Shown piece by piece: positions 1,221-59,039 of a stretch of DNA of 64,000 nucleotides. The DNA is from Syntrophus sp. (in: bacteria) (GTDB lineage: Bacteria; Desulfobacterota; Syntrophia; Syntrophales; UBA8958). The notes below the pieces were generated by a model. The model did no database searches, was not told the DNA's origin, and saw only the letters and a list, made by a program, of their open reading frames with translations. Positions within the stretch are counted from its first letter, which is position 1, and each line of letters begins with the position of its first letter. The DNA is taken from contig JANXZC010000182.1 of assembly GCA_025355725.1 (NCBI GenBank), positions 33,885 through 97,884 of the forward strand, in the 5' to 3' direction. Position numbers and translations under genes: made by a program.

Positions 1221-1273
1221 AACAACATCCATCTACTTGGCAGTGGTTGTATGTCCGGGTCAGTTACGGGGCT

Positions 1274-1951
1274 CTAAGCAAGTTTGCCGTCGATTAGCAG
1301 CTTCCGCTGGATTTCAAGAATTTTTCTCATCAGATGCCGTTCATAATCCCGACTGTTGCCTATGAATGCTGCCCCCACATAGTGCAGATCCGGATCATGA
1401 GCAATAGGCGCCGTCACCCTCAACACCTTTATCGGCAGCTCTAAAAAATACTCGTCGATAATCAGAGCAATTTTAAACTCCTCATGCATTTCCGGCAAAT
1501 CATCGCCCCGATAGCTAAACTGGAAACCACCTACAGAGAGGTCGATGATATTGAGCCTTCGCCCTTTCCACTCGATAGTGAGATTGCTATCGGCGGGGGG
1601 GCGAACCCGAAAATCAAGCCTCAGGTTGTAGGTGTCCAACCTGGTCTGCTGTTCAAGACCCACGGCCACGACCTCTGAGGAAGACAGCTTGTAGTCGGTG
1701 ATGAAATCAGTTACCTTGGCTTGTACTCCGTAACGAACAGGTTGCCCATCTTTTCTTATTAGAAAGGTGAGGGATATTTCCCGGTTCAAGTTATGCTTGG
1801 TCAGGGGGGGGGAGGCTTGGGCAATGATGATCCGGCGGTCGATTACATCATAGATCAGGGATTTCATATGCCTGCTCCGATCAACGATATCGACGGATAT
1901 CCCCGGCCTGATCGGTGTCTTGCTTTGTTCCATAGAATATTCGCGCTCCAA
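1274..1951 (-). CDS. PilZ domain protein (YcgR-like, putative c-di-GMP receptor)
   Basis: The C-terminal half carries RLDFR (RxxxR) followed by IIDLSVGGFQF (DxSxxG), the PilZ signature. The start could be M1 or M7. Confidence 0.75.
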   Translation of the reverse strand: MEREYSMEQSKTPIRPGISVDIVDRSRHMKSLIYDVIDRRIIIAQASPPLTKHNLNREISLTFLIRKDGQPVRYGVQAKVTDFITDYKLSSSEVVAVGLEQQTRLDTYNLRLDFRVRPPADSNLTIEWKGRRLNIIDLSVGGFQFSYRGDDLPEMHEEFKIALIIDEYFLELPIKVLRVTAPIAHDPDLHYVGAAFIGNSRDYERHLMRKILEIQRKLLIDGKLA

Positions 1952-2137: not shown

Positions 2138-2263
2138 ATTCCAATTCCAAACCAAAGATGAAATCAAGGCGGCAAGGCAGCGGCGACGGAGGCGTATTGT
2201 TCATACGTCGAGGAGCCGATGACGATGCCAACGAAGATAGCGCTTTGATTAAGGATTGGAATA
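2138..2263 (-). repeat. Copy 1 of the ~125-bp palindromic intergenic element
   Basis: Aligns by eye over its whole length with 6643-6767, 30218-30341 and 33757-33881. Terminal arms are attccaattccaaaccaaag / ctttgattaaggattggaat. It lies between the divergent PilZ and ABC-F genes. Confidence 0.85.
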
Positions 2264-2323: not shown

Positions 2324-4336
2324 TTGATCTATCTGAAAAATATCAGTCTGGCATTTGGCGACCGTACCCTGTTTGAGAACTGGACCTGGCCAATCACGGC
2401 TAGGAGCCGGATTGGCCTGGTGGGAGACAACGGCGCCGGGAAGACTACCCTATTGAAGGCAATCCTCGGCATGGTGGAGTTGGACGGGGGTACGATCGAT
2501 ATCCTGGACCGGAAAAACAGGACCATCGCCTATCTTCCCCAGGATCTCGTGGAAATCGAGCCTGTTCCCCTCATGGAATATCTGAAAAACCGTTGCGGCC
2601 TGACCGCTTTGGAAACCGGGATGCGCAATTGCGAGAAACAGGTGGCCGCGCTGCCGGCCCATCCCCCGGAAGGTGAAGGAGAAGAGGAAGGGTTATCCGA
2701 GAACGGAGCAAGACGCGAAAAGATCCTCCGGGAATATGACCGGATGGTCGCCCTCTATCAGGCCAAAGAAGGCTATGCCTTCGAGGCGAGGGCCAAACAG
2801 GTTCTCAAGGGGTTCGGATTCGGGGAGCAGGATTTTCTCAAGCAGTGCGACGAGTTTTCCGGAGGTTGGAAGATGCGCATCCTCCTGGCCGTCATCCTCC
2901 TGTCCCAGCCCGACATCATGCTCCTCGATGAACCAACGAATCACCTCGATACGGAAAGCATGGAGTGGCTGGAAAGCTATTTAAAAGACTATCCGGGGAT
3001 GCTGATTACCGTTGCCCACGATCGCTTCTTCCTGGACAAGATGGCGACAACCATAGCGGAAATCTCCCAGGGTCGTTTGGCTCTGTACAAGGGCAACTAC
3101 TCCTATTATCTCGTGGAGAAGGAAAAACGCCTGGCGGCCCTGGAAAAAGAACGGCTCCTCCAGCAGGGGGAGATCAAAAAAACCGAGGAATTCATCGAAC
3201 GGTTTCGCTTCAAGGCCACCAAAGCCAAACAGGTTCAGAGCCGGATCCGGATGCTCGAAAAATTTGCCCCCCTCCAGGCCGAAGGACATGGTAAAACGGT
3301 CAAGATCCGTTTCCCCGCCGGGCCGAAAAGCGGGAAAGAGATTCTCTTTGTCAGTAAACTTGCCAAATCTTACGGAACCCAGGAGATTTTCAGGGAGGTC
3401 AGCTTCTCCCTCCAGCGGGGAGAGCGGGTAGCACTGGTCGGTGTCAACGGATCGGGTAAATCGACGCTGTCACGGATTCTTGGCCAGGTGGAGGCGCCTT
3501 CGGCAGGGGAAATCCGCTCCGGTCTCAATGTGCACATGGCCTTTTTTTCCCAGGAAAGCGCGGAAAATCTTCGTTATGAACGGACGGTCTGGGAAGAAAC
3601 GATGGAGGTTGCCTCCCGGAGCAATGACCGGGAAAGACGGAACCTTCTCGGGGCCTTTCTTTTTTCCGGCGATGACATCCACAAGCCCGTCTCCGTCCTC
3701 TCGGGAGGGGAAAAGTCGCGGCTGGCCCTGCTGAAGATCCTGCTCCAGGAGACAAACCTCCTGATCCTCGACGAACCCACCAATCACCTGGATTTCAAAA
3801 CCAAGGATATCTTCCAGAATGCCTTGCTGTCCTACCAGGGAACCGTCGTCCTCGTATCCCATGACCGTTATTTCCTTGACCACTTAGTCAATCGCGTCTT
3901 TGAACTTAGGGACGGCGAATGTATCGAATATCCGGGCAATTATTCCTATTTTATCGAGAAGCGGCAATCATTGGCGGAGGAGAGAAGGGCCGCAGCAGTG
4001 CAGAACGGAAGCCCACCGGATACCCCGACGGCGGAGGGGAAAAGCGCCTATAAGACCAGGGAAGAAAAGCGCCGGGAGGCGGAAGAGCGCCAGCGCCTGG
4101 CCAGGATCAATCAGGGACTGAAAAAAGAGCTTCACGCCATAGAAAAGGGCATCGCCGCCCTGGAAGGCAGGAAGGCAGCGGGCGAATCGTTTCTCTGCGA
4201 TCCCCTCAGCCACCGGGAACCGGAGAGAATCAAGCAAACCCACCGGGACCTCAAAGATCTGGAGAAAGAAATCGAACAGTCGTACGACCGTTGGCATGAG
4301 CTGACGATGGCCATGGAAGATAATATATTATCTTGA
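2324..4336 (+). CDS. ABC-F family ATPase (two ABC cassettes, no TM domain; Uup/EttA/YheS-like)
   Basis: Two Walker A sites (GDNGAGKTT, GVNGSGKST), two LSGGxK signatures and two LLLDEPTNHLD Walker B motifs. There is a charged linker and a coiled-coil C-terminus. The start is TTG. Confidence 0.85.
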   Translation: MIYLKNISLAFGDRTLFENWTWPITARSRIGLVGDNGAGKTTLLKAILGMVELDGGTIDILDRKNRTIAYLPQDLVEIEPVPLMEYLKNRCGLTALETGMRNCEKQVAALPAHPPEGEGEEEGLSENGARREKILREYDRMVALYQAKEGYAFEARAKQVLKGFGFGEQDFLKQCDEFSGGWKMRILLAVILLSQPDIMLLDEPTNHLDTESMEWLESYLKDYPGMLITVAHDRFFLDKMATTIAEISQGRLALYKGNYSYYLVEKEKRLAALEKERLLQQGEIKKTEEFIERFRFKATKAKQVQSRIRMLEKFAPLQAEGHGKTVKIRFPAGPKSGKEILFVSKLAKSYGTQEIFREVSFSLQRGERVALVGVNGSGKSTLSRILGQVEAPSAGEIRSGLNVHMAFFSQESAENLRYERTVWEETMEVASRSNDRERRNLLGAFLFSGDDIHKPVSVLSGGEKSRLALLKILLQETNLLILDEPTNHLDFKTKDIFQNALLSYQGTVVLVSHDRYFLDHLVNRVFELRDGECIEYPGNYSYFIEKRQSLAEERRAAAVQNGSPPDTPTAEGKSAYKTREEKRREAEERQRLARINQGLKKELHAIEKGIAALEGRKAAGESFLCDPLSHREPERIKQTHRDLKDLEKEIEQSYDRWHELTMAMEDNILS

Positions 4337-5200: not shown

Positions 5201-5224
5201 GTCCTTTATTCACAGGTGCCAACA

Positions 5225-6631
5225 ATGATTCGTCGCACGAAGATAATTGCCACCATCGGCCCGGCAAGCGCGGCCCCCGAGGTACTGGAAGCCCTGGTAG
5301 CTGCCGGAATGGATGTGGCCCGCCTGAACTTTTCCCACGGTTCTCACGGGGAGCACAAAACCCTTATCCGCCGGATTCGTGCCGCTGCCCGTCGGCAGGG
5401 ACGGACGGTGGCCATTCTCCAGGATCTGGCAGGGCCAAAGATTCGTATCGGCCCGGTTCCCGAACCGGGAATCCGCCTGGAGTCAGGTCGTTTGTTCATC
5501 CTTACCGCCCGTTCCGCTGTCCGGGGCGGCGAAGAGGTCTCCGTTACCTATCCCGAATTGGCCCGGGAGGTACATAAAGGGGACCGAATCATGTTAGCGG
5601 ATGGGCTAATGGAACTGGTTGTGGAAGAAACGGATGGCACGGATATTACCTGCACCGTCATTACCGGCGGCCTCCTCACCTCTCACAAAGGGATCAACCT
5701 CCCCACGGGGACGATCCGTGCGCCTGCCTTTACGGCTAAGGACCGCGTGGATCTTCTTTTTGGCCTGGAAGCCGGGGTGGATTATGTGGCCCTGTCCTTC
5801 GTGAAAAGTGCCGAGGAGATAAGAGGGGTCCGGGAATTGATTACGGAACGGGGCAAACAAACGCCGATTATCGCCAAGATCGAGCGGCACGAGGCGCTGG
5901 AGAACATTGAGGAGATCGTCGCCGCTGCCGACGGAATCATGGTGGCCCGGGGGGACCTGGGCGTTGAGATCCCCCTCGAAGAAGTCCCCCTGGTTCAGAA
6001 ACGCTTAATCCATATGGCCAATACCGCCGGAAAACCGGTCATCACGGCGACACAGATGTTACGATCGATGGTGGACTCACCTCGTCCTACCCGGGCCGAG
6101 GTGACGGATGTGGTAAATGCAATCCTCGACGGCGCTGATGCGATCATGCTCTCCGAAGAGACAGCCTCGGGGCGGTACCCCTTAGCGGCAGTCCAGTTCA
6201 TGAACCGACTGTCCCTCGTGGCTGAGGGGAACTTTCCCCACAATGACTATCTCAAAAAGACGCCCCGGCGGGATGTTCCCGATTCGGTGGCCCATGCCTC
6301 CTGCATCCTCGCCGATCACCTGGATGCCCGGGCCATTGTCGCCCATACGCAGTCGGGGCTGACCGCTCTGAACATATCCCGTTTCCGTCCCAAGCAGCCC
6401 ATCGTGGCCCTCACCCCCAATGAGGGAACCCTCCGCCGTCTGGCCTTGGTCTGGGGTTGCCTCCCCATGAGGATCAGGGCGGCTAGGGGGACAGACGACT
6501 TGATCGAGCGGGCCGCCCTGGCCGCCTTGGATAGTGGGGCCGTCGCCCCCGGAGACCTGGTGGTCATGACGGTAGGGCACCCCGTCACCGGCGCGGGAAC
6601 GACGAACATGCTCCGGGTAAAAAAATTATAA
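5225..6631 (+). CDS. pyk: Pyruvate kinase
   Basis: RRTKIIATIGPAS, NFSHG, the MVARGDLGVEIP block and the C-terminal allosteric domain are present. I prefer ATG at 5225 to the tracked GTG at 5216. Confidence 0.95.
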   Translation: MIRRTKIIATIGPASAAPEVLEALVAAGMDVARLNFSHGSHGEHKTLIRRIRAAARRQGRTVAILQDLAGPKIRIGPVPEPGIRLESGRLFILTARSAVRGGEEVSVTYPELAREVHKGDRIMLADGLMELVVEETDGTDITCTVITGGLLTSHKGINLPTGTIRAPAFTAKDRVDLLFGLEAGVDYVALSFVKSAEEIRGVRELITERGKQTPIIAKIERHEALENIEEIVAAADGIMVARGDLGVEIPLEEVPLVQKRLIHMANTAGKPVITATQMLRSMVDSPRPTRAEVTDVVNAILDGADAIMLSEETASGRYPLAAVQFMNRLSLVAEGNFPHNDYLKKTPRRDVPDSVAHASCILADHLDARAIVAHTQSGLTALNISRFRPKQPIVALTPNEGTLRRLALVWGCLPMRIRAARGTDDLIERAALAALDSGAVAPGDLVVMTVGHPVTGAGTTNMLRVKKL

Positions 6632-6642
6632 CGGGGTCACTT

Positions 6643-6767
6643 ATTCCGCTTCTAGATCAAAGATGATATCAAGACGGCAAGGAAGAGGCGACGCAGGCGT
6701 ATTGTTGATACGTCGAGGAGCCGATGATGATGCCAACGAAGATAGCGCTTTGATTCAGTAGAGGAAT
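6643..6767 (-). repeat. Copy 2 of the ~125-bp palindromic intergenic element
   Basis: The core is near-identical to the other copies. On the minus strand it reads TAA|TTCCTCTACTGAATCAAAG, directly continuing from the rubrerythrin-like stop codon (6767-6769). It lies 12 nt after the pyk stop on the plus strand. Confidence 0.85.
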
Positions 6768-7285
6768 TATGCCCCGTCGAGACCCGACCTTTCCGCCTTC
6801 CGATACCAGGAGGCCGGATCCTTCATGTATTCTTCAGTATCTTTGAGGGAAACGTAATGTTCATGTTCAATGTTGGCCAATAGCTCAAAAAAAGCCTTTT
6901 CCTTGGGATCTGTAACGTTGTCACGGAGCCGGGCATAATAGGTCGCCCCCTGACCCTCGAAATCAATTGCCTCCTCCAGGGCCTTCAGGTCATCGGCGTC
7001 CCCCGCCGGGGCGTTGGCCACCTTCTTAATGACATCCTTCAGGACATCTTTAACAATGGTTTCTTTGACCTTCAGGGGGACCGTATCGGGCCACTTCTTG
7101 TCTTTGGCCCAGTTTTCGTGAAGCTGTTTGAGCCGTTCGTAATGTTCCAGTTCATCTGCGGCGATCTGCTGGAACATGGCCTTGCCGACGGGATTTTTTG
7201 TCCGCTCCGCGTTCTTCAGGTAAAACTCATGCTCTCTCATTTCATTATTCAGGGCAACATCCAGGGCGTTCAAACGATCTTTCAT
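6767..7285 (-). CDS. Rubrerythrin/ferritin-like di-iron protein (no rubredoxin domain)
   Basis: Two E...ExxH pairs (EMREHE...ADELEHY and EGQGATYY...NIEHEHY) are typical of four-helix di-iron carboxylate proteins. Confidence 0.7.
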   Translation of the reverse strand: MKDRLNALDVALNNEMREHEFYLKNAERTKNPVGKAMFQQIAADELEHYERLKQLHENWAKDKKWPDTVPLKVKETIVKDVLKDVIKKVANAPAGDADDLKALEEAIDFEGQGATYYARLRDNVTDPKEKAFFELLANIEHEHYVSLKDTEEYMKDPASWYRKAERSGLDGA

Positions 7286-12679: not shown

Positions 12680-12884
12680 GTAACCCTAAGAAATATCATA
12701 TGCTAAGGAAGCGGAGCGGTTTGGAAAGCTCAAGGGCAACTTGAGGAACAAATGAAGGAGGAAGTGCGGCTCAATGCCCTGATTTTGGAAAACCTGAAAA
12801 AGGTGAAGCTGGAGTGAGTGTAGTGGCAAGTTCAACTTGAAGTCACAGATTGTGACCTCAAGTTAGGGTGTAAGGTGAAAAGCA

Positions 12885-13862
12885 ATGGTTGAAAATACTA
12901 TCATTAAGAAAGATGACATTCAAAGCCGTATTTTTACCATACGCAATGTCCAGGTCATGCTGGATAGTGACCTTGCTGAACTTTATGGTGTTGAAGTAAA
13001 AAGATTGAATGAACAGGTAAAAAGAAACATTGAAAGATTTCCGCAGGAATTCAGCTTTCAGCTCACCGTCGAAGAAAATAATGCTCTAAGGTCGCAATTT
13101 GCGACCTTAGAGAAAGAAAGCCACTTTAGGTTCCAAATTGGCCCCTCGAAAGATGAGCAAAACTTGAAGTCGCAATTTGCGACTTCAAGTTGGGGTGGAA
13201 AACGAAAAGTGCCCTACGCATTTACCGAGCAAGGCGTGGCCATGCTTTCCGGAGTTCTTAAAAGCAATACGGCTGTTCAAATAAGCATTCAAATCATCAA
13301 TGCATTTGTATCCATGCGGAAATTTATTTCTGCAAATGCGCAGATATTTCATCGTCTCGAAGGCGTTGAAAGAAAACAGATTGAATACAAAGTAGAGACC
13401 GACGAGAAATTCAAGAGGGTCTTCGACGCCATCGAAGAGAAAGACATCAAACCCAAGCAAGGCATTTTTTTCGACGGCCAGATTTTCGATGCCTATCAAT
13501 TTGTTTCCGAGCTGATTCGTACGGCCCGGAAATCGATAATTGTTATTGATAATTATATTGATGATGCGGTTTTAACTTTGCTTTCCAAAGCCAACAAGAA
13601 AGTGCAGATCACCATCCTCACCAAGGCCATTTCCAAACAGCTTGCCCTGGATATAAAAAAATATAACGAGCAATATCCTGCCATCACATTAAAGGAATTC
13701 TATCATTCTCACGACAGGTTTTTAATCATTGACGGCAAAACAGTTTATCATTTCGGCGCATCCTTAAAGGATCTGGGTAAAAAATGGTTCGCCTTTTCCA
13801 AGTTTGATAAAAACGCATTTAAGCTGCTGGAGAGACTGGCAGGGGTTGTCAGTGAACAGTAA
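12885..13862 (+). CDS. ORF6N (KilA-N-like) DNA-binding domain protein with conserved C-terminal HxR..D / GAS module
   Basis: The N-terminus IRNVQVMLDSDLAELYGVEVKRLNEQVKRNIERFP...FSFQLT...SQFATSSWGGKRKVPYAFTEQGVAMLS is the ORF6N signature. The C-terminus has IIVIDNYID and HDRFLIIDGKTVYHFGASLKDLGKK. The gene is AT-rich relative to its neighbours. Confidence 0.75.
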   Translation: MVENTIIKKDDIQSRIFTIRNVQVMLDSDLAELYGVEVKRLNEQVKRNIERFPQEFSFQLTVEENNALRSQFATLEKESHFRFQIGPSKDEQNLKSQFATSSWGGKRKVPYAFTEQGVAMLSGVLKSNTAVQISIQIINAFVSMRKFISANAQIFHRLEGVERKQIEYKVETDEKFKRVFDAIEEKDIKPKQGIFFDGQIFDAYQFVSELIRTARKSIIVIDNYIDDAVLTLLSKANKKVQITILTKAISKQLALDIKKYNEQYPAITLKEFYHSHDRFLIIDGKTVYHFGASLKDLGKKWFAFSKFDKNAFKLLERLAGVVSEQ

Positions 13863-15682: not shown

Positions 15683-15717
15683 CGCGCATCGTCCCTTGCC
15701 GTTTTCCTGTAAATATA

Positions 15718-15927
15718 TCAGTAGTCATCGTGATCATCAGGCAAAACCAGCGGGTTCTCTCTTTTTGCCCTCCAGAACCGGTATCCGAAGAAGAGGACAA
15801 ATGCCAAGGGTACACTGCCCAGAATCACATTTTCCACTGTCCAGGGAGGTTGGAGAAAAAAAATAGCCCAGAAGATTACCGAGGCAACGATGAATGCCCA
15901 TGCAGCTTGAATCATTGAGTCCTCCAT
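15718..15927 (-). CDS. Small two-TM membrane protein, translationally coupled to thiC
   Basis: The thiC stop and this ATG are contiguous (TAAATG). The 69-aa product has two hydrophobic spans and an acidic tail, and I recognise no family. Confidence 0.45.
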   Translation of the reverse strand: MEDSMIQAAWAFIVASVIFWAIFFLQPPWTVENVILGSVPLAFVLFFGYRFWRAKRENPLVLPDDHDDY

Positions 15928-18833: not shown

Positions 18834-18849
18834 GAAAAATACTGATCAT

Positions 18850-18932
18850 CTTTCCGCCACTCCCTACGCTGGCATTACCCAGGTCAGGTTCAAAGGGTAT
18901 CTTCTCAGCCTTATCGGCGCCCCTGTCAACTA
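18850..18932 (-). ncRNA. TPP (THI-box) riboswitch
   Basis: The minus strand reads CAGGGGCGCCGATAAGGCTGAGAAGATACCCTTTGAACCTGACCTGGGTAATGCCAGCGTAGGGAGTGG. This contains the conserved GGGG, CTGAGA, ACCC, GAACCTGA, TAATGCCAGCGTAGGGA blocks. Confidence 0.9.
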
Positions 18933-19015
18933 TTTACGGACACGACTACACCAGCCCCGGCCGCAAAAGGTGATGTGCGATCCTACGAATCTATTTTTGG
19001 AAAAGCAAGGATTTT

Positions 19016-29100: not shown

Positions 29101-29481
29101 ATGGACGCCAAAGAAAGGGTGTTATGTTGCATAAATGCCGCCCTGACCCGGAAAGCTCATAATCTTGTCGTCATGAAAGTTGCGGAAACATCATCTTTTA
29201 CTGATTATTTTCTCATCTGCAGCGGCTCCTCGGACCGCCAAGTCAAGGCCCTGTGCTCCTCCATCGAGGAAAGCCTGAAAAAGGTCGGCATGGCACCCCT
29301 CGGCATTGAGGGAGAAAAGCACGGGAGGTGGGCTCTCATGGATTACGATGATGTCGTCATCCATGTTTTTTTGGAGCCACTCCGGGAATTTTACGATATC
29401 GAGCGCCTTTGGGCGGACGCCCCCAGGATGCTCATCCCCGATGATACCTCCCTGGTTGAGGAACTTGCCGAGGGTATGTGA
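29101..29481 (+). CDS. rsfS: Ribosome silencing factor RsfS (iojap)
   Basis: FTDYFLICSGSSDRQVKAL...WALMDYDDVVIHVF...REFYDIERLW is the canonical RsfS pattern. Confidence 0.9.
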   Translation: MDAKERVLCCINAALTRKAHNLVVMKVAETSSFTDYFLICSGSSDRQVKALCSSIEESLKKVGMAPLGIEGEKHGRWALMDYDDVVIHVFLEPLREFYDIERLWADAPRMLIPDDTSLVEELAEGM

Positions 29482-29482
29482 T

Positions 29483-30217
29483 GTGTTGAAGGACGTGCTA
29501 CGGGATTTGGCTGATGTACTGTTTCCTCCCCGTTGCCAATCCTGCCGGACGGTTGCAGAAAAACTGGCCAACGATCTTTTCTGCCCGGTCTGCGAAGAAA
29601 AGATTCGATACATTCGCACCCCTCTCTGCCCGGCCTGCGGGACCCCCTTTCCCGATGCCGAAGGATCGAACCATCTGTGCGGAGATTGTCTGATGGCCCC
29701 CAAACCTTTCGCCGTCGCCCGATCCGTCGCCGCCTTCGACGGCATTCTGCTTGAGGCTATCCATGCTTTCAAATACAAAAACAAAACCGGGATGGCAACA
29801 GGCCTGGGAAGGATGATAACTGGTGATTCCTATGCCGGCATGGACATGCGGGGCTACACGATGATCATGCCGGTTCCGCTCCACATCCGGCGCCTGCGGG
29901 AACGGGGATTCAACCAGTCCCTGCTCCTGGCAAAAATACTTTCCCCAAGGTATGCCATCCCCCTTGATTTTGTTACTCTGAAGCGCGAAAGAGACACGCC
30001 GCCCCAGACGACGATGGGACGCAAAGAGCGTCAGGCCAATATCAAAGGGGCCTTCGGCGTTGCCGATAAAGAAAGGGTCAGAAAGCAGCATGTTTTATTG
30101 ATTGATGACGTTTACACGACGGGAAGTACCCTCGCCGAGTGCACCCGGGTGTTGTTGAATAGCGGCGCGGCCCGGGTCGGCGTTTTAACCCTGGCCCGGG
30201 CGGTAAAGGATGCTTAG
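29483..30217 (+). CDS. comF: ComF family protein (phosphoribosyltransferase-like)
   Basis: N-terminal double CxxC (PPRCQSC...CPVC...CPAC...CGDC), RERGFNQS, and the PRTase motif VLLIDDVYTTGST. The GTG/TTG start lies just after the rsfS stop, and the tracked 29306 start overlaps rsfS. Confidence 0.8.
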   Translation: MLKDVLRDLADVLFPPRCQSCRTVAEKLANDLFCPVCEEKIRYIRTPLCPACGTPFPDAEGSNHLCGDCLMAPKPFAVARSVAAFDGILLEAIHAFKYKNKTGMATGLGRMITGDSYAGMDMRGYTMIMPVPLHIRRLRERGFNQSLLLAKILSPRYAIPLDFVTLKRERDTPPQTTMGRKERQANIKGAFGVADKERVRKQHVLLIDDVYTTGSTLAECTRVLLNSGAARVGVLTLARAVKDA

Positions 30218-30341
30218 TTCCCATTCTAAATCAAAGCGCTATCTTCGTTGGCTTCGTCATCGGCTCCCCGACGTATTTCCATATACGCCTCCGTCGCCTC
30301 TTCCTTGCCGCCTTGATTTCATCTTTGATATAGAATGGGAA
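30218..30341 (+). repeat. Copy 3 of the ~125-bp palindromic intergenic element
   Basis: It starts at the nucleotide after the comF TAG stop (TAG|TTCCCATTCTAAATCAAAG). The arms TTCCCATTCTAAATCAAAG / CTTTGATATAGAATGGGAA are complementary at 18 of 19 positions. Confidence 0.85.
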
Positions 30342-30372: not shown

Positions 30373-30849
30373 ATGAATAAAATCTTTTCCAGAGAGAAGC
30401 TGAAAAAAGAATTAAACGGGTTACGCGAGGCAGGGAAAACCATCGTCTTTACCAACGGTTGTTTCGATATTCTCCACGTCGGCCATGTCCGTTACCTGCG
30501 GGAAGCAAGAAAACTTGGGGATATTCTTGTGCTGGCACTGAACAGCGACGCCTCAGTCCGCGCTATTAAAGGGGAAAAACGTCCTCTGGTACCGGAAGAT
30601 GAGCGGGCGGACATCATGGCTGCTCTGGAATCCATCAATTACGTGATCCTTTTTGATGATCCGACGCCCCAGCAGTTGATTGAATATCTCCAGCCCGACA
30701 TCCTCGTTAAAGGAGGTGACTGGACGGAAGCGGCAATCGCTGGCGCCGATTTTGTGAAGGCTTCGGGGGGCAGGGTCATCACCATCCCCCTTACCGAGGG
30801 TCGCTCGACAACTAACATCGTGGAAAAGATTCGGCAGGTTTATAGTTGA
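30373..30849 (+). CDS. rfaE: D-glycero-beta-D-manno-heptose 1-phosphate adenylyltransferase (RfaE domain II type)
   Basis: FTNGCFDILHVGHVRYL (HxGH cytidylyltransferase fold), ALNSDASV and VKGGDW. Confidence 0.85.
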   Translation: MNKIFSREKLKKELNGLREAGKTIVFTNGCFDILHVGHVRYLREARKLGDILVLALNSDASVRAIKGEKRPLVPEDERADIMAALESINYVILFDDPTPQQLIEYLQPDILVKGGDWTEAAIAGADFVKASGGRVITIPLTEGRSTTNIVEKIRQVYS

Positions 30850-31548: not shown

Positions 31549-33756
31549 ATGTTTGTAAAGGTTGCCATCCCTATCCCCAAAGATCAATCCTTTGATTATA
31601 TCGTCCCCACGGAGATGGAGAAGAATGTCGCTATTGGCAAACGGGTGCTTGTCCCTTTTGGCAACAAGCGGGAGACAGGATGTATCGTCGGGATAACAAC
31701 CGCTACGGACATTGAAAATCCCAAAGAGATCATTGAGATCCTGGATCAGGAGCCGCTCTTTGACGACCGTGATCTCGCCTTTTACAGTTGGACGGCTGAT
31801 TATTATCTCTATCCTCTGGGAAAGGTCCTCGGAGAAATCCTGCCCGGGGTAAAGGACCGCCGCACCAGAACGGAAAAGATCGCCGCCGCCAGTTGCAACG
31901 CATCGTCAACCACTGAAAAATTAACGGTAAAACAACGTCTCGTCCTTAAAATCCTTCAGGAGGAGGCCGAAGTATCCGTTGCCGTCCTCTGTCAAAGGTT
32001 GGGAAACGTCCGTTCTACCCTTGCTGCCCTCGAAAAAAAAGGACTCGCCTGTATCACGGAAAAGGGCGTATTCCGCTCTTTTCCGCCCTTTCTCACCGTC
32101 GGGGAACCTTCAGGAAGACCGACCGCTAATTCCTCTCAAGAAGCGGTCTTAAAGGAACTCCACTGTAACCTCCAGTCCGGTCAATTCAGCACCTTTCTTC
32201 TCCACGGCGTAACCGGGAGCGGTAAAACCGAAGTCTATTTCCAGGCTATGGAGGAGGTCCGTCGCCGCCAGGGAGGGATTATCTATCTCGTTCCGGAAAT
32301 TGCCCTGACCCCCCAGCTCCTCACGCGTCTCAAAGAAAGATTCGGGGATGAAAACATTGCCGTCCTCCACAGCGGCGTCTCCCGCGCCATCCGTTATGAA
32401 CAGTGGCAGCGCCTGCGACGAGGCGAAATGCACATGGCTGTGGGGGTGCGCTCTGCCCTCTTTGCGCCGGTCCGGGATCTGAAGTTGATCATTGTCGATG
32501 AGGAACACGACGCTTCTTATAAGCAGGATGACCGGCTGCCATACAGTGCCCGGGATTTGGCGATTGTTAAAGGCCGTCTGCACGGGGCAACGGTTGTCCT
32601 GGGATCGGCGACGCCGGCGGTACAAACCTGTTTCAATGCCCGGAACGGGAAATTCTCCTGCCTGACCATGCCTGGCCGGATCGCCGACAGACCCCTGCCT
32701 CGCGTTGAAATTGTCGATATGAAAATGGAAAAGGCCCTTCAAGGCAAGAATACCTTTACTATCTTTTCCCGGCGCCTCACCGCCGCCATTCGGGAAACCC
32801 TGGACAGGAAGCAGCAGGTCATGCTCCTCCTCAACCGGCGCGGCTATCACACTTTCCAGATCTGCCGGGACTGTGGCCATCCCCTGAAGTGCCGGAATTG
32901 CGAAGTTTCCCTGATTCAACATGCCCAGGAGGGGGTCTGGAAATGCCACTACTGTGATTATACCCTTGCGGGAGGATTGGTTTGTTCCCGGTGCAGCAGC
33001 GCAAATATCGGCGCTTACGGTATGGGAACTGAGCTGTTGGAGGAAGAGATAACAAACCGTTTCCCCGCTGCCCGGATCAGGCGCATGGACAGCGACACCA
33101 TGGACCGGAAAGGGGCTCACGAGCAATTGCTCAACGCCCTCGGTCAGGACCGGATCGATATTCTCGTGGGGACCCAGATGATTTCCAAGGGACATGACTT
33201 TCCAAATGTCACCCTCGTAGGTGTGATCCTGGCGGATACGTCCCTTAGCCTTCCAGATTTCCGCGCTGCGGAGCGAACCTTCCAGCTCCTGACCCAGGTT
33301 TCCGGCCGGGGGGGGCGGGGTGATTTCCCGGGAAAGGTGATCATTCAAACCTTCAATCCCAATCACTATGCCATCCAGAAGGCCAAAGACCATGACTACG
33401 ACGGCTTCTACGAAGAAGAAATCTCCCTGCGTGAATCCTTGTTCTACCCCCCCTTTTCACGACTGATTCATCTGCGCTTGTCGTGCATCCATCAGGCCAA
33501 GGGGGAGGAGGGAATCAACAGGCTCGCGGAAAAGGCACGGGAGCTTCTCAAGCTGGCCAGGGTGAGGGGAAAAGTGGAAATCGTCGGGCCTGCGGAAGCC
33601 CCCCTGTTCCGGCTGCGGGGCCGTTATCGCTGGCAACTGCTCCTGAAAGGGGATGACAGCCGTTTTCTCCACGCCCTGACCCGGGATATCCTGTCGGGCT
33701 TTCACGCCCCGGGTGTGCAGGTCAAGGTAGACGTCGATCCCGTCCACTTCATGTAA
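31549..33756 (+). CDS. priA: Primosomal replication protein N' (PriA helicase)
   Basis: Walker A GVTGSGKTEVY, DEEHD, Cys-rich zinc fingers (CRDCGHPLKCRNC...CHYC...CSRC), and the helicase C-terminal motifs. Confidence 0.95.
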   Translation: MFVKVAIPIPKDQSFDYIVPTEMEKNVAIGKRVLVPFGNKRETGCIVGITTATDIENPKEIIEILDQEPLFDDRDLAFYSWTADYYLYPLGKVLGEILPGVKDRRTRTEKIAAASCNASSTTEKLTVKQRLVLKILQEEAEVSVAVLCQRLGNVRSTLAALEKKGLACITEKGVFRSFPPFLTVGEPSGRPTANSSQEAVLKELHCNLQSGQFSTFLLHGVTGSGKTEVYFQAMEEVRRRQGGIIYLVPEIALTPQLLTRLKERFGDENIAVLHSGVSRAIRYEQWQRLRRGEMHMAVGVRSALFAPVRDLKLIIVDEEHDASYKQDDRLPYSARDLAIVKGRLHGATVVLGSATPAVQTCFNARNGKFSCLTMPGRIADRPLPRVEIVDMKMEKALQGKNTFTIFSRRLTAAIRETLDRKQQVMLLLNRRGYHTFQICRDCGHPLKCRNCEVSLIQHAQEGVWKCHYCDYTLAGGLVCSRCSSANIGAYGMGTELLEEEITNRFPAARIRRMDSDTMDRKGAHEQLLNALGQDRIDILVGTQMISKGHDFPNVTLVGVILADTSLSLPDFRAAERTFQLLTQVSGRGGRGDFPGKVIIQTFNPNHYAIQKAKDHDYDGFYEEEISLRESLFYPPFSRLIHLRLSCIHQAKGEEGINRLAEKARELLKLARVRGKVEIVGPAEAPLFRLRGRYRWQLLLKGDDSRFLHALTRDILSGFHAPGVQVKVDVDPVHFM

Positions 33757-33881
33757 TTCCGGTTCTAAATCAAAGCGCTATCTGCGTTGGCATCGGCAAT
33801 CGGCTCCTCGACGTATGAAAAATACGCCTCCGTCGCCTCTGCCTTGCCGCCTTGATTTCATCTTTGATTTAGAACCAGAAT
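33757..33881 (+). repeat. Copy 4 of the ~125-bp palindromic intergenic element
   Basis: It starts immediately after the priA TAA (TAA|TTCCGGTTCTAAATCAAAG). The arms ATTCCGGTTCTAAATCAAAG / CTTTGATTTAGAACCAGAAT are complementary at 19 of 20 positions. Confidence 0.85.
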
Positions 33882-34032
33882 AACACAAAGGGCTTCGTTA
33901 AAAACCGTCGCTTATGGCCAAATATTTGACTTTTTACGGGTTCAGCAATAGCAGGAGGCAATATTTCTATTTCCTTTTCAGGGAATTTTTGACTATATGA
34001 AGGCAATTATGTGCCGGGGAGGTTTATGCACC

Positions 34033-34971
34033 ATGCCCAAGCCGAGGCTGCTGTTTATGGGGACGCCGGAATTTGCCGTTCCGTCGCTGGAAACGATTAT
34101 TAATGCCGGGTATCCTGTGGTCGGAGTGGCGACCCAGCCGGACAAGCCCAAGGGGCGGGGTCGGCGCCTGCAAGCCTCGCCGGTGAAAGAACTGGCGGAG
34201 GAAAATGGCCTGCTGGTCCTGCAGCCGGAGCGGGTAAGAGACGATGTTTTCCTGCAGATCTTCCGAGGTCTGAATCCCGATCTGGTCGTCGTTGCCGCCT
34301 TCGGCCAGATCCTCCCCGGGGAGATTCTTGAACGTCCGAAACTGGGCTGCATTAACGTCCATCCTTCCCTGCTCCCCAAATACCGGGGTGCGGCGCCCCT
34401 CAACTGGAGCCTTATTCGCGGCGAAAAGACAACCGGAGTAACAATCATGATGATGGACGCCGGCGTCGATACGGGTGACATTATTCTTCAGGAAGAGACA
34501 ACCGTGGAAGAAGGGGAGACCTGTGATTGCCTTCATAACCGCCTGGCCAGGATGGGGGCGGATCTCCTCCTGAAAACAATCCGGCAGATCGAACAGGGAA
34601 CGGCGATCCGGACGCCTCAGGATAATCATCAGGCAACCTATGCCCCCCGGCTGAAGAAAGAAGACGGACGGATCGACTGGTGCAAAGACGCCGTCGATAT
34701 CGTCAATTTTATCCGTGGTTTATCTGCAACCCCCGGTGCGTATACATACCTTGATGGGAAGGTTTTTAAAATCTTTAAGGCGGTCGCGGAACCAGGAGCA
34801 GTCGTAGAGGAGAGAGGCGCAATTGGCCCGTCAACGCAGAGAGGACTCCCCGTTGCCGCAGGAGCGGGCTATGTCTATCTTCAGGATGTTCAGTTGGAGG
34901 GCAAAAACAGGATGGGGATACAAGATTTTTTACGAGGCAATCCTATCAAGTCTCACGCCCGTTTGGGATAA
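34033..34971 (+). CDS. fmt: Methionyl-tRNA formyltransferase
   Basis: LLFMGTPEFAV, HPSLLPKYRGAAPL (SLLP motif) and a C-terminal OB-like domain. Starting at M13 of the tracked ORF gives the typical N-terminus. Confidence 0.93.
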   Translation: MPKPRLLFMGTPEFAVPSLETIINAGYPVVGVATQPDKPKGRGRRLQASPVKELAEENGLLVLQPERVRDDVFLQIFRGLNPDLVVVAAFGQILPGEILERPKLGCINVHPSLLPKYRGAAPLNWSLIRGEKTTGVTIMMMDAGVDTGDIILQEETTVEEGETCDCLHNRLARMGADLLLKTIRQIEQGTAIRTPQDNHQATYAPRLKKEDGRIDWCKDAVDIVNFIRGLSATPGAYTYLDGKVFKIFKAVAEPGAVVEERGAIGPSTQRGLPVAAGAGYVYLQDVQLEGKNRMGIQDFLRGNPIKSHARLG

Positions 34972-53237: not shown

Positions 53238-54062
53238 ATGGATTGGGGAATGGAAAACCGCCTGTCCCAGCTAATTCAGGCAGATGGACACTGCTTCTTT
53301 CTGCCTATCGATCACGGCTATTTCCAGGGACCGACATCGTGTCTGGAGAAACCCGGAGAAACCATTAAACCGCTTCTTCCCTACTGCGACGCCCTTTTTG
53401 TAACCAGAGGCGTCCTGCGGTCCGCTGTCAATCCCGTCGGGAGCAAGCCCGTTATTCTCCGGGTATCGGGAGGGGCCAGCGTCCTGGGGAAGGACCTCGC
53501 CAATGAATCCCTCACCACTTCCATCGAAGAGATCCTGCGCCTTAATGCCGCGGCCGTGGGGATATCGATTTTCGTGGGGACCGACTACGAACGGGAATCA
53601 CTGATGAACCTTTCCGAAATCGTCAATCAGTGCGAGGATTTCGGCATTCCCGTCATGGCCGTCACCGCCGTCGGCAAGGAGCTGGAAAAACGGGATGCCC
53701 GGTATCTGGCCCTGTGCTCCCGCATTGCCGCCGAGTTGGGGGCGCGGGTGGTGAAAACCTACTGGTGCAAGAATTTCGACAAAGTGGTAGCCGGCTGCCC
53801 CGTTCCCGTCGTCATGGCGGGAGGACCAAAATGTGAAACAGAAAAGGAAGTGTTTGATTTTGTTTACGACGGGATGCAAAACGGCGCCATCGGCCTCAAT
53901 CTGGGCCGAAATGTCTGGCAGAACCCTCATCCCGTGGCCATGATGAAGGCCCTCCACGCCATCATCCACGAAAACCTCACGGCTAGGGAAGCCTGGGAGC
54001 TTTTCAACGACGCCAAGGCGGAAAAGAGCAAAAAAGCAAAAGCCGTCAAAGGGAAAAAATGA
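53238..54062 (+). CDS. Class I aldolase family protein, LsrF/FbaB (DhnA) type, with Lys-rich tail
   Basis: From my recollection of E. coli LsrF, DWGMENRLSQL, IDHGYFQGPT, TRGVLRS, the Schiff-base Lys context VVKTYW, VAGCPVPVVMAGGPK and GRNVWQNPHPVAMMKALHAIIH track it closely. The tail is AKAEKSKKAKAVKGKK. Confidence 0.7.
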   Translation: MDWGMENRLSQLIQADGHCFFLPIDHGYFQGPTSCLEKPGETIKPLLPYCDALFVTRGVLRSAVNPVGSKPVILRVSGGASVLGKDLANESLTTSIEEILRLNAAAVGISIFVGTDYERESLMNLSEIVNQCEDFGIPVMAVTAVGKELEKRDARYLALCSRIAAELGARVVKTYWCKNFDKVVAGCPVPVVMAGGPKCETEKEVFDFVYDGMQNGAIGLNLGRNVWQNPHPVAMMKALHAIIHENLTAREAWELFNDAKAEKSKKAKAVKGKK

Positions 54063-54082
54063 TGCCGGCGGGGAGATAGTCC

Positions 54083-55108
54083 ATGCGCGTAGCCATGTAT
54101 TACCGGAACAATGACGTAAGGATTGAGGAGATGCCGGTACCCCGGATCGGCCCCGGGGAGATCCTCGTCAAGGTAATGGCCAGCGGGATCTGCGGCAGCG
54201 ATATCATGGAATGGTACCGGATCAGGAAGGCGCCCCTGGTCCTGGGCCATGAAATCGCCGCGGTTGTCGCCGCGGTTGGAGAAGGGGTGACGAACTGTCG
54301 CCTCGGAGACCGGGTCTTTGTCTCCCACCATATCCCCTGCAATACCTGCCATTACTGTCTGCAAGGATACCACACCGCTTGCGAGACCCTCCACAGCACC
54401 AATTACGATCCCGGCGGCTTTGCCGAATATCTCCGGGTCCCCCGGCTTAATGTTGACCGGGGGGTTTTTCTCCTCCCCGAAGACGTTTCCTTCGCCGCCG
54501 GCGCCATGATCGAACCCCTGGCCTGCGTCATCCGGGGGCAGCGTCTGGCCCGCCTGCAACCGGGACAAGCGGTGCTGGTGCTGGGCAGCGGCATCTCCGG
54601 CATCCTTCATATCATGCTGGCCCGGGCCTCCGGGGCGGGAAGGATCATGGCCACGGACATCAACGCCTACCGGCGGGACCAGGCCCTGACCTTTGGCGCC
54701 GAAGACGTCAGTGATGCCCGGGAGGATATACCGGCCTGGGTGCGGAGCGTCAACGATCAGCGCCCCGCCGATCTCGTCATTGTCTGCACCGGCGCCCCCG
54801 CTGCTTTCGATCAGGCGCTGCAATCCGTGGACCGGGGGGGAACAATCCTCTGTTTCGCCACGACGGAGCCGGGGGTTAACCTGTCCGTGCCCCTCAATGA
54901 TTTCTGGCGCAACGAGATCAAACTCATGCCTTCCTACGGCAACAGCCCCTACGATGCCACGGCGGCGATCAATCTGATCCGCTTTAACCGTCTGCCCGTG
55001 GAAAAAATGATCTCCCACCGCCTGCCCCTCGCGGAGGCCCAAAAGGGCTTCCAGCTTGTCGCCACGGGAACGGAAGCAACTAAGGTGATCCTTCTCCCCC
55101 ACGGCTGA
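54083..55108 (+). CDS. Zinc-dependent medium-chain dehydrogenase (threonine/sorbitol dehydrogenase-like)
   Basis: GICGSDIMEW, GHEIAAVV, the structural-zinc Cys cluster CNTCHYCLQGYHTAC, and the Rossmann LVLGSGISG. Confidence 0.85.
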   Translation: MRVAMYYRNNDVRIEEMPVPRIGPGEILVKVMASGICGSDIMEWYRIRKAPLVLGHEIAAVVAAVGEGVTNCRLGDRVFVSHHIPCNTCHYCLQGYHTACETLHSTNYDPGGFAEYLRVPRLNVDRGVFLLPEDVSFAAGAMIEPLACVIRGQRLARLQPGQAVLVLGSGISGILHIMLARASGAGRIMATDINAYRRDQALTFGAEDVSDAREDIPAWVRSVNDQRPADLVIVCTGAPAAFDQALQSVDRGGTILCFATTEPGVNLSVPLNDFWRNEIKLMPSYGNSPYDATAAINLIRFNRLPVEKMISHRLPLAEAQKGFQLVATGTEATKVILLPHG

Positions 55109-56927: not shown

Positions 56928-58666
56928 ATGGAACGGACCAAGCAGGAGATCACCGAGATCCTGGATGAACTGGCCCTCCTTTTGGAAATGAAGGGTGAAA
57001 ATCCATTCAAATCGAGGGCCTATGCAAATGCCGCCCGCAGTCTTGAAGCCCTGGATGAGGACCTGGACCTGGTTGTCCGGGAAGGCAGGCTGGCCACCAT
57101 CAAAGGGGTAGGCGAAGCCATCAGCAAGAAAATCGAGGAACTGGCCGCGACGGGACAGCTCAGATACTATCACGATCTCAAGGCCACCATTCCCGCCGGC
57201 CATTTCGAGATGCTTAAAATTCCGGGCCTGGGCCCCAAGAAAATCCATATCCTTTATGAAAAACTGGGAATTCAAACCATCGGGGAGCTGGAATACGCCT
57301 GCCAGGAGAACCGCCTCCTCGATCTGCCGGGATTCGGCAGTAAAACCCAACAGAAGATCCTTGCCGGCATTGATGCCTTAAAGCACTACCGGGAGCGACG
57401 CCTCTACACCGAAGTAATTGCCGAGGCGATGGACCTCCGGAAGTTTCTGACCGATCAGCGGGGCGTCATTGCCGCCGGCATCGCCGGATCGCTCCGCCGG
57501 GGCAACGAGGTCGTCAAGGATATTGACCTCCTGGCGGCCACGGACGATCATCTCCTCCTCGCCGACGCCTTTGCCTCCTCCCCCTGCCTCAGGCGGCATC
57601 CGTCATTGCCAAGGGGGACACCAAGGTAAGCGTGACCCTCCGCTCCGGGATCAACGCCGATCTCCGTATCGTGTCCCCCTCCCAATACCCCTACGCCCTC
57701 CATCACTTCACCGGCAGTCGGGAACACAATACGGCCCTCCGGGGGCGGGCAAAAAAGCTTGGTTTGAAAATGAATGAATACGGACTCTTCCGGGAAGAAG
57801 AGAACCTCTTGTGTCACAGCGAGGAGGATATTTTCGCCGTCCTGGATTTGCCCTATATTCCCCCGGAGCTTAGGGAAAACATGGGGGAAATCGAGGCGGC
57901 CGCAGCGGGAGAGCTTCCCCGGCTGGTGGAAACAGGGGATATGCGTGGCGTCCTGCACATCCACACCCAGGCCAGTGACGGCGCCGATTCTCTGGAGGCG
58001 CTGGTCCGGGAAGCCAAACGGCGGGGATACGCCTATATCGGCGTCAGCGACCACAGCCAGTCCGCCTATTACGCCGGGGGACTCTCGCCGGACGCCGTCC
58101 GGCGCCAGCATGAAGCCATAGACAGCATCAACGCCGGGGAAGAGACATTTCACATCTTCAAGGGCATCGAGGCCGACATCCTCCCCGATGGCCGCCTCGA
58201 CTATGACGATGAAACGCTGGAACGGTTCGATTTTGTCATTGCCGCCGTCCATTCCCATTTCCAGATGGCCGAGGAAGAGATGACCGTGAGGATCATCAAG
58301 GCCCTGGCCAATCCCTTCACCACGATCCTCGCCCACCCGACCGGACGGCTGCTGCTGGCCAGGGAACCATATGCCCTGGACATCCACCGGGTGATCGATG
58401 CCGCCGCCGCGAACGGAAAGGTCATCGAACTCAACGCCAATCCCCTGCGCCTCGACCTGGACTGGCGCCACTGCATCTACGCGAAGAGAAAGGGTGTAAA
58501 GATCGCCGTCAATCCCGACCTTCATAATCTGGCCGGCTTCGATTATATGGAAGGGGGCGTAACCATCGCCCGGAAGGGATGGATGGAGAGGGAAGATTGC
58601 CTGAACTGTATGGAGCTGGAAGAAATAAGGGAATATTTCCTGCGTCTGCGGAACCTTAAAAGATGA
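56928..58666 (+). pseudogene. polX: Family X DNA polymerase with C-terminal PHP domain (PolX), interrupted by a 1-nt frameshift
   Basis: ORF 56928-57629 carries the HhH and pol-beta palm (GVGEAISKKI, GSLRRGNEVVKDIDLL). ORF frame +2 continues with ...QAASVIAKGDTKVSVTLRSGINADLRIV...FTGSREHN and the PHP domain (HIHTQASDG...). The frames switch at the C5 run at 57580-57584, and adding one C gives the contiguous ...AFASSPLPQAASVIAKGDTK... Confidence 0.8.
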
Positions 58667-59039
58667 GTATCCGGGGAAATGGTAGTATATGAAGGCCATC
58701 AAATACTGGCTTGCCACAGACATCTTCCCGTAATCGTGATTTTGCGCTGAAGATTTGGGATAGTAGCTTTCATTTGGTACAGTTCATGAGGGATCAATGG
58801 AAATGTCGATGGCAACTGTTACCGCTGTCATCTACAACTCAGTAAGAGACCAACTCTAAAAAAACAATGAATCCTGATTGAAACGTGCATATTTTTTAAC
58901 GTGATGTTTTGAGCGCATGGAAATAATCTACGATCTTCATTGGCGTATTGAATAATAAGTGATAAGAAATACGAACATTGAAGAGGATGCAACCTATGAG
59001 CAATCAATATTATCAAAAGTCAAGAAAGGAGATTGTCTT

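Follow-up and report, generated by a model that had tools for sequence, protein, structure and literature searches.

What kind of sequence is a ~125-bp palindrome that recurs between the genes of a Syntrophus genome with no transposase gene beside it? We analyzed a 64,000-nucleotide stretch of this genome (hereafter, the window), in which an initial annotation had placed four copies of such an element. All four are present there, as established by reading of the sequence and by alignment of the copies, and the element is most probably a 122-124-bp non-coding, non-autonomous DNA transposon of the MITE type. The evidence comes from the ends of the copies, from sites that are filled or empty among close relatives, and from a hairpin whose properties bear on several alternative readings.

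Relatives of the element were sampled by scanning one genome per species for a single exact 19-base motif of the left arm. A profile search of the listed loci then yielded 128 matches, of which 92 are full-length with flanks, and the counts of structure and orientation given below rest on an alignment of 83 distinct copies among the matches listed. Because all copies were found via one exact motif, the conservation of the left arm is by construction and divergent relatives are under-sampled. Loci of other genomes are designated by L numbers.

The copies in the window and the extent of the family

A profile built from the four copies (nhmmer) matched each of them with E-values from 1e-44 to 1e-46 and gave no further credible match in the window, and a repeat search of the window returned the same copies as its longest repeat pairs. 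The copies, c1 to c4, are 86-89% identical in pairwise comparison (Table 1). The strand of a copy is that on which the C-rich reading AATCAAAGCGC... is found. Gene calls and Pfam context place all four strictly between genes, in agreement with the first description, and in three of the four a stop codon directly adjoins the element.

Table 1. Copies of the element, sites that lack it and other features of the window
Feature	Position	Strand	Neighbouring genes or content	Arrangement	Flanks or counterpart in relatives	Basis
Copy c1	2139-2261	-	PilZ-like ORF 1274-1951 (-); ABC-F ATPase gene 2324-4336 (+)	divergent spacer	TGA 2136-2138 and TAA 2262-2264 (+ strand), unmatched	profile and alignment; Pfam
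Copy c2	6644-6766	-	pyruvate kinase 5216-6631 (+); rubrerythrin 6767-7285 (-)	convergent	TSD TTA/TTA, 6641-6643 and 6767-6769 (+ strand); the right one is the rubrerythrin TAA stop on the - strand	profile and alignment; Pfam
Copy c3	30218-30341	+	comF-like 29306-30217 (+); cytidylyltransferase gene 30373-30849 (+)		left TAG 30215-30217 (ComF stop); right junction decayed, AA, then TAA 30344-30346	profile and alignment; Pfam
Copy c4	33757-33880	+	priA 31549-33756; fmt 33997-34971		perfect TSD TAA/TAA, 33754-33756 (priA stop) and 33881-33883	profile and alignment; Pfam
Empty site	15718-15720		single TCA		filled in L054, TCA on both sides; alignment break 15704-15717 versus L054 6181-6419	
Empty site	18949-18951		CAC		filled in L081 by a decayed copy, CAT/GTCC...GGGA/CAC	
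TPP riboswitch	18844-18934	-	upstream of thiamin pyrophosphokinase, HMP-P kinase and ThiC genes			65 bits
~1.3-kb segment	12626-13928		ORF6N-domain protein 12885-13862		absent from L054	
32-nt inverted repeats	12833-12864 and 13161-13192		one arm just upstream of the ORF6N ORF, the other inside it			
391-codon ORF	53930-55102	-				
391-codon ORF	57551-58723	-				

Matches to the motif were obtained at a minimum of 112 loci from at least 39 species-level assemblies, so the family is dispersed, as first supposed, and is not the product of local duplication. Host labels of the matches listed are Syntrophales, Syntrophus, Smithella, Geobacter/Geobacterales, Desulfuromonadaceae, Pelotalea chapellei, Desulfosalsimonadaceae and Syntrophorhabdaceae. 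Two host-linked subfamilies can be distinguished among these matches, a Syntrophales type and a Geobacter type. Geobacter-type copies also occur in a Desulfosalsimonadaceae MAG labelled as Desulfobacterales (L027, L058, L068 and L100), and Syntrophales-type copies occur on single contigs in bins of other phyla, Nitrospinota (L109) and Phycisphaerae (L039), possibly by mis-binning; these out-of-group copies reflect either horizontal transfer or mis-binning. We found no blastn match in 72,556 plasmids or 50,697 phages, and the exact motif is absent from IMG/VR; therefore, there is no evidence of a plasmid or phage vector. If the element is a MITE, it represents an unnamed and widespread family in Desulfobacterota, including syntrophs and metal reducers, where few such families are described.

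Target-site duplication, mobility and the missing transposase

Among the matches listed, 79 of the 92 full copies are 122-124 bp long, with the terminus TTCC in 71 and GGAA in 56. Identical 3-nt flanks are found in 52 of the 92 full copies, a figure that falls to 1-3 of 92 when the compared positions are shifted as a control. The duplicated triplet is TAA in 26 copies, TTA in 19, TCA and TGA in 3 each and TGG in 1, so that TAA and TTA account for 45 of the 52 duplications. The element thus duplicates a 3-bp TNA target, with a preference for TAA or TTA. The outer arms had initially been drawn as ending approximately in TTATTCC/GGAATAA; since the in-register flanks are duplicated outside TTCC...GGAA, these strings are made up of the termini TTCC/GGAA and the 3-bp target-site duplication (TSD). 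A 2-bp TA or a 4-bp duplication fits neither the flanks nor the empty sites, and the flanks of the listed copies contain no conserved motif past TNA.

Orthologous sites that are filled or empty among close relatives show that the element is mobile. The window genome shares 92-96% DNA identity with two Syntrophales MAGs, and two sites that are empty in the window are occupied in L054 and L081, respectively (Table 1). The decayed copy in L081 lies ~15 nt upstream of a TPP riboswitch. Of 80 loci encoding relatives of PriA, only L116 has the element, which there occupies the c3 site as well as that of c4. At the c4 site, the empty sequence of L115 (93% PriA identity) reads ...CACTTCATG TAA CAAACGGCTTCGT..., the window reads ...CACTTCATG TAA, element, TAA CACAAAGGGCTTCGT..., and L116 has the element between two TAA triplets. 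The c3 site is empty in L114, L115 and L120 (GGATGyT TGA TAA ATCCGG) and filled in L116 and L113. By these filled and empty sites, the window's own copies are therefore insertion polymorphisms. Small size without coding capacity, terminal inverted repeats, a TSD of fixed length and dispersed copies with presence/absence polymorphism, four properties of MITEs, are observed in this element.

The element had been called non-coding from the outset, and the larger alignment bears this out: over the 83 copies, the ATG-led frame of the G-rich strand is anywhere from 3 to 84 codons long and shifts between subfamilies, with the nucleotides conserved throughout. The ATG itself is conserved and frames of 27-31 codons occur in many copies, as would be expected if the element encoded a small protein (MKSRRQG...ANEDSALI). 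We give this reading almost no credence, since frame and length differ among copies and subfamilies, the middle shifts frame in spite of nucleotide conservation, a Shine-Dalgarno sequence is absent, and substitutions track base-pairing and not codon position.

The first copy, c1, has unmatched flanking triplets. Its left half corresponds to the copy in L025 (1143-1265, TTA/TTA) and its right half to that in L013 (5687-5810, TCA/TCA), with the crossover at the hairpin apex; the two parent copies lie on different contigs of one related MAG. In C-strand orientation the c1 flanks are TTA and TCA, one from each parent copy, and the lack of a matched TSD is accounted for by recombination between two copies. 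This hybrid implies a rearrangement that the element would have mediated.

Partial profile matches in the listed loci are truncated copies, copies with internal deletions or copies into which other small palindromic elements have inserted. The element decays, acquires internal deletions, is invaded by small elements and recombines between its own copies. Geobacter-type copies are repeatedly interrupted by two short elements, TTAGTAAGTTACGAA...GGCTAACGAACTATCCTG and CCCTCTCTCTATCTCTCTCCC...GGGAGAGGG, either left of the hairpin centre or at the apical stem (L005 1253-1494, L026 3281-3488, L017 7213-7417, L016 3339-3544, L031 and L063). Short internal-deletion derivatives are found in L034, L050 and L065. 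A second, unrelated palindromic repeat of ~108 bp, CATGAAAATTCCCCCTAACCCCCCTTT...AAAGGGGGGTTAGGGGGAATTTTCATG, is present in L013 (4716-4824), absent at window positions 1260-1274, and nested inside the L054 copy of the element (about 6205-6300). A third palindromic repeat of ~115 bp, GGCTTCGTAAAAAGAT...ATCTTTTTACGAAGCC, is found in L115 (about 6715-6830) and L022 (about 1-60), and in L003 the studied element (1038-1161) is inserted within it. A segment of the window with an ORF6N-domain protein gene and a pair of inverted repeats is missing from L054 (Table 1).

The priA-fmt spacer of several close relatives carries varied cassettes resembling toxin-antitoxin genes (VapB/PIN-like, Phd/YefM-like and RHH-like, as judged by eye), located at L113 3427-, L114 5178-8530, L117 6709-7730, L118, L119 and L140. 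At least in L114 and L117, the left edge of the cassette, TTCCGATTCT..., equals the first 10 nt of the element, and the right edge, ...AAGCGCTATCTTCGTTGGCAT, equals interior sequence of its left arm. This arrangement looks like an old copy of the element that was split and partly deleted at a hot spot. Cassettes edged by element fragments could also suggest an integron attC-like recombination site, and Vibrio VCR-type attC sites are imperfect palindromes of ~120 bp folded on one strand, resembling the element in size and strand-specific folding. Such a site is extremely improbable here: the copies are solitary and dispersed, occur in both orientations and have TSDs, their ends are TTCC/GGAA, unlike RYYYAAC/GTTRRRY, and neither arrays nor an integrase, in the window or as a recurrent neighbour in the listed loci, were found. 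As a transposon, the element marks recombination points, as in the c1 hybrid, and hot spots that gather small elements and toxin-antitoxin cassettes.

The element also breaks short-read assemblies. Contigs with identical PriA from public runs stop at the apex of the c4 hairpin (...GGCTCCTCGACGT) or begin inside c3, and contig ends at the apex or interior of the element are seen at L193 3944-4001 and at L194 1-45 and 3458-3515. In L193 another gene lies upstream of the cytidylyltransferase gene, and this region is therefore mosaic between samples.

An associated transposase had not been noticed initially, and none was detected either inside the window or at distances of up to ~4 kb from the 112 other listed loci. 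The 59 window ORFs of at least 110 aa have no transposase or recombinase domain in Pfam. All-against-all clustering of 711 ORFs from the listed loci showed only housekeeping families as recurrent, with no transposase-like cluster. Lone termini 0.7-4 kb apart were considered as the ends of a longer autonomous element and proved to be chance matches inside genes, and no autonomous IS with the same ends was detected in the window, in the listed loci (up to 8 kb each) or in the plasmid and phage collections. Two 391-codon ORFs of the window (Table 1) were rejected as partners, as they are mutually unrelated and match nothing in Pfam or NCBIfam; from their composition, they look like antisense artefacts of opposite-strand genes.

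The element would be moved in trans by a transposase encoded elsewhere that makes 3-bp staggered cuts. A 3-bp TNA/TWA duplication is typical of IS5-family enzymes (IS1031/IS427/ISL2-type) and of PIF/Harbinger enzymes, for which reason our best guess for the partner is a DDE enzyme that may be IS5-family- or Harbinger-like. The corresponding IS would share the ends 5'-TTCCNNTTCYAAATCAAAG and a 3-bp duplication.

Hairpin, strand and gene orientation

Both RNA folding and the alignment of 83 copies resolve the palindrome recognized at the start into an imperfect hairpin of 44 pairs. Across the 83 copies, 90.8% of the hairpin cells are paired, versus 26-35% when the partner is slid. Double changes occur at 22 pairs, and the covariation score is 0.182 versus at most 0.046, a level reached by none of 500 shuffles; the hairpin model was derived from one member, which somewhat favours that structure. 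The outer helix has 23 pairs, with 95% of cells paired. Compensation is observed in the apical stem (UA/CG at columns 62/71 and GC/AU at 59/74) and in the terminal 19 bp (AU/GC/GU at columns 5/129 and CG/UA at 10/124), where the variants GTTTC/GAAAC, GATTC/GAATC, GGTTC/GAACC and AATTC/GAATT are found. Such compensated variation is odd when set against fixed terminal repeats read by a transposase.

The hairpin differs between the strands. G:U combinations occupy 316 cells at 9 positions and A:C combinations 49 cells at 3 positions; because G:U is tolerated and A:C is not, the maintained fold belongs to the G-rich strand. Folded as RNA, this strand reaches -41 to -60 kcal/mol (z about -3.8 to -8.5) and the C-rich strand -31 to -44, the G-rich strand having the better minimum free energy (MFE) in 82 of 83 copies (mean -47.3 versus -34.3). 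With RNA parameters the full hairpin is a well-defined MFE structure with an ensemble frequency of ~0.2, whereas under DNA parameters robustness is confined to the outer stem and the gap between the strands narrows to 4-6 kcal/mol. On these models, the maintained fold looks more RNA-like than DNA-like, although the comparison is not decisive.

Resident copies diverge slowly. Between the window and L116, orthologous c3 and c4 differ at 22 of 248 positions (8.9%) and the four-fold degenerate sites of priA at 80 of 346 (23%; Fisher p = 5e-6), i.e. the copies diverge ~2.6 times more slowly than these sites. Purifying selection or homogenization among copies could account for the difference. Together, the hairpin and its slower-than-neutral divergence suggest that a single-stranded form, RNA or DNA, is under selection.

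These features raise the question of whether the element is first and foremost a structured RNA (a small RNA, or else a cis-acting module of 3'- or 5'-UTRs) that has been dispersed and whose product is the G-strand hairpin. Strong covariation with conserved G:U pairs, a full hairpin that is well defined with RNA parameters and reduced to a robust outer stem with DNA parameters, and the slow divergence of resident copies relative to four-fold sites would all agree with this, and distant relatives in Geobacter metallireducens were published as 'predicted short RNA elements' (Aklujkar et al., PMC2700814). We nevertheless consider it unlikely. An Rfam search, proposed in the initial annotation as a check, matched no family, either in the window at the gathering threshold or on c4 at E<=10. 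A scan of c4 revealed no sigma-70-like promoter, no intrinsic terminator and no U-tract. Moreover, TSDs and insertion polymorphism demand a DNA transposition step in any case. The motif ATCAA(A/G)G was also considered by eye as an IHF site and is a poor match to WATCAANNNNTTR.

Gene orientation bears on the same question. Neighbour arrangements inferred among the matches listed are convergent in 27 cases, co-directional in 30 and divergent in 12. In 33 of the 83 copies (~40%) the target triplet coincides with the stop codon that ends an upstream ORF of 80 or more codons, namely TAA in 20, TGA in 11 and TAG in 2; 31 have an upstream ORF of at least 100 codons resembling a real protein by eye, such as Rpe, MetG, RapZ, MurJ, PriA and ComF. 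The C-rich strand is in the gene sense in 27 of these 33 copies (p = 0.0003), or 25:6 after orthologous sites are collapsed (p = 0.0009). The rule belongs to the Syntrophales type, in which about half of the copies lie exactly on a native stop codon, with the C-rich strand in the mRNA sense in 22:0 of them and in 13 of 14 copies in co-directional contexts (1 G-sense). Away from stop codons, copies of this type are oriented without preference with respect to the triplet (10 T[AG]A versus 12 T[TC]A), and the Geobacter type is unbiased at stop codons (3:6). This counts against a structured RNA, since the strand that folds better, the G-rich one, is in most cases antisense to adjacent genes, and read-through transcripts therefore carry the weaker strand.

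A strand-specific hairpin could alternatively be the substrate of single-stranded DNA movement by an HUH/Y1 enzyme, the element being REPIN-RAYT-like or a palindrome-associated derivative of IS200/IS605. Compensatory changes even in the 'terminal repeats', the lack of a linked transposase in the listed loci, and host-specific subfamilies that fit long vertical residence are in line with this possibility, which we rate as less likely still than a structured RNA. Insertion of the IS200/IS605 type creates no duplication and depends on a fixed sequence of 4-5 nt located on a single side, whereas the element has true 3-bp duplications of variable sequence, single-copy empty sites, and flanks with no conserved motif past TNA. 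Orientation has no significant link to local GC skew (33 versus 50 copies, t-test p = 0.33), and the gene-direction bias would place the C-rich and not the G-rich strand on the lagging-strand template. With a variable TSD, no fixed flank motif and no recurrent neighbouring transposase in the listed loci, the element does not fit a REP/REPIN-RAYT or IS200/IS605-derived palindrome, for which a linked Y1 transposase would be expected.

For the element as a MITE-type transposon, stop codons would be safe landing sites, since TAA and TGA are both target and stop and the duplication regenerates the stop; landing there would keep the element strictly intergenic. The 3-bp TNA duplication would thereby illustrate a way for a transposon to insert at stop codons without harm. 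Under a crude null model of a random intergenic TNA site, 10 stop-codon matches were observed versus 5.9 expected (p~0.02, n = 28). Given this modest excess, target preference and purging of intragenic insertions explain most of the association with stop codons, but not the orientation. Purging of stable G-sense hairpins from mRNAs is unsupported as the cause of the orientation rule, as the strand asymmetry is greater in the Geobacter type (-44.8 versus -28.9 kcal/mol), which has no orientation bias.

Two further observations speak against the transposon reading: a strand-specific fold is not predicted by cut-and-paste of double-stranded DNA, and the strong gene orientation of Syntrophales-type copies is not predicted by a symmetric TNA target. 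It is conceivable, though we remain doubtful, that the Syntrophales-type element is an orientation-locked gene-end module beyond a selfish MITE. If so, either insertion would be coupled to the direction of transcription or translation, or the host would keep the one orientation that acts. Such a module might act as a C-rich Rho-loading or insulator sequence, or its G-strand hairpin might stop antisense transcription from running into the gene. If the strict orientation of copies at stop codons is functional or mechanistic, it could serve to test how gene direction is perceived by hosts or transposases. The conserved G-strand fold, set against the C-rich strand lying in the mRNA sense, is relevant to the question of whether selection acts on MITE hairpins as RNA or as DNA.

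Comparison with known elements

The core sequence string of the element is absent from the searchable literature. The exact element sequence is also absent from the searchable text of the supplements of two Geobacter genome papers, and these are weak negatives because the alignment examined prints the bases spaced apart. In G. metallireducens, 24 'predicted short RNA elements' (Gmet_R1001-1024; also GSU0160.1) with the central sequence GRCGTAGCGCTGCTACGCC were described in 2009 (PMC2700814, Fig. S1). They are ~113 nt long, intergenic and multicopy, and have a central palindrome G(R)CGTA...TACGCC, as does the element, whose centre is GACGTAT-N5-ATACGCC versus GRCGTAGCGCTGCTACGCC. The element profile matched Gmet_R1013 and Gmet_R1010 (E = 1e-7 and 1e-6; 21 and 18 bits) over ~80 of 123 positions, with GGCTCCTCGACGTA...TACGCCTGCG in common, and matched the other tested members weakly or not at all. 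The similarity, ~65-70% and limited to some members, does not extend to the outer arms and termini. By these two matches, a distant relative of the element has already been catalogued; it was published without ends, duplication or evidence of mobility (PMC2700814), and without a mechanism.

The MITEs of the IS5 family and PIF/Harbinger have a 3-bp T-N-A duplication in common with the element, in which TAA/TTA is strongly preferred. IS5-family termini are usually G-rich, whereas those of the element begin with TTCC and their terminal bases covary and are not fixed. Tourist and Harbinger elements make TWA duplications, a Harbinger hallmark, and ISfinder tables also give a three-base target for the IS1031 group. 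Three-base target sites characterize the IS1031 group within the IS5 family (PMC2516522). No parent IS of the element was found in the window, the listed loci, the plasmids or the phages.

Chunjie, a MITE of the related host Geobacter uraniireducens Rf4, likewise resides in intergenic regions and operons without disrupting them. It is an A+T-rich element of 178-235 bp whose terminal repeats span 21 bp and whose direct repeats span 9 bp, and the 123-bp length and 3-bp duplication of the element rule out identity with it. REPINs, like the element, are small dispersed repeats with a hairpin kept by base-pair compensation. The same holds for the hairpin repeat bcr1 (PMC3184786). REPINs are REP doublets that make no duplication and are tied to RAYT, and bcr1 belongs to Bacillus and has 5-bp direct repeats, in contrast to the 3-bp TSD of the element.

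The closest known element in form is ERIC (IRU), a family of 127-bp imperfect palindromes of Enterobacteriaceae and Vibrio that are classed as MITEs. ERIC and the element have nearly equal lengths and a long imperfect hairpin, are strictly intergenic and often at gene 3' ends in both orientations, are conserved across genera, have no known transposase, and carry short TA-containing flanking repeats. To our knowledge, no report on ERIC describes a stop-codon and orientation rule like that of the element. ERIC is reported to have orientation-dependent effects at the RNA level, acting on the upstream mRNA via an RNase E site (review, PMC3184786). The likeness is one of form, judged by the description of ERIC, and the host range differs, that of the element being Desulfobacterota. 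Finally, ERIC is flanked by TA (PMC3184786), whereas the element lies between copies of a 3-bp TNA target, among which TCA, TGA and TGG are represented.
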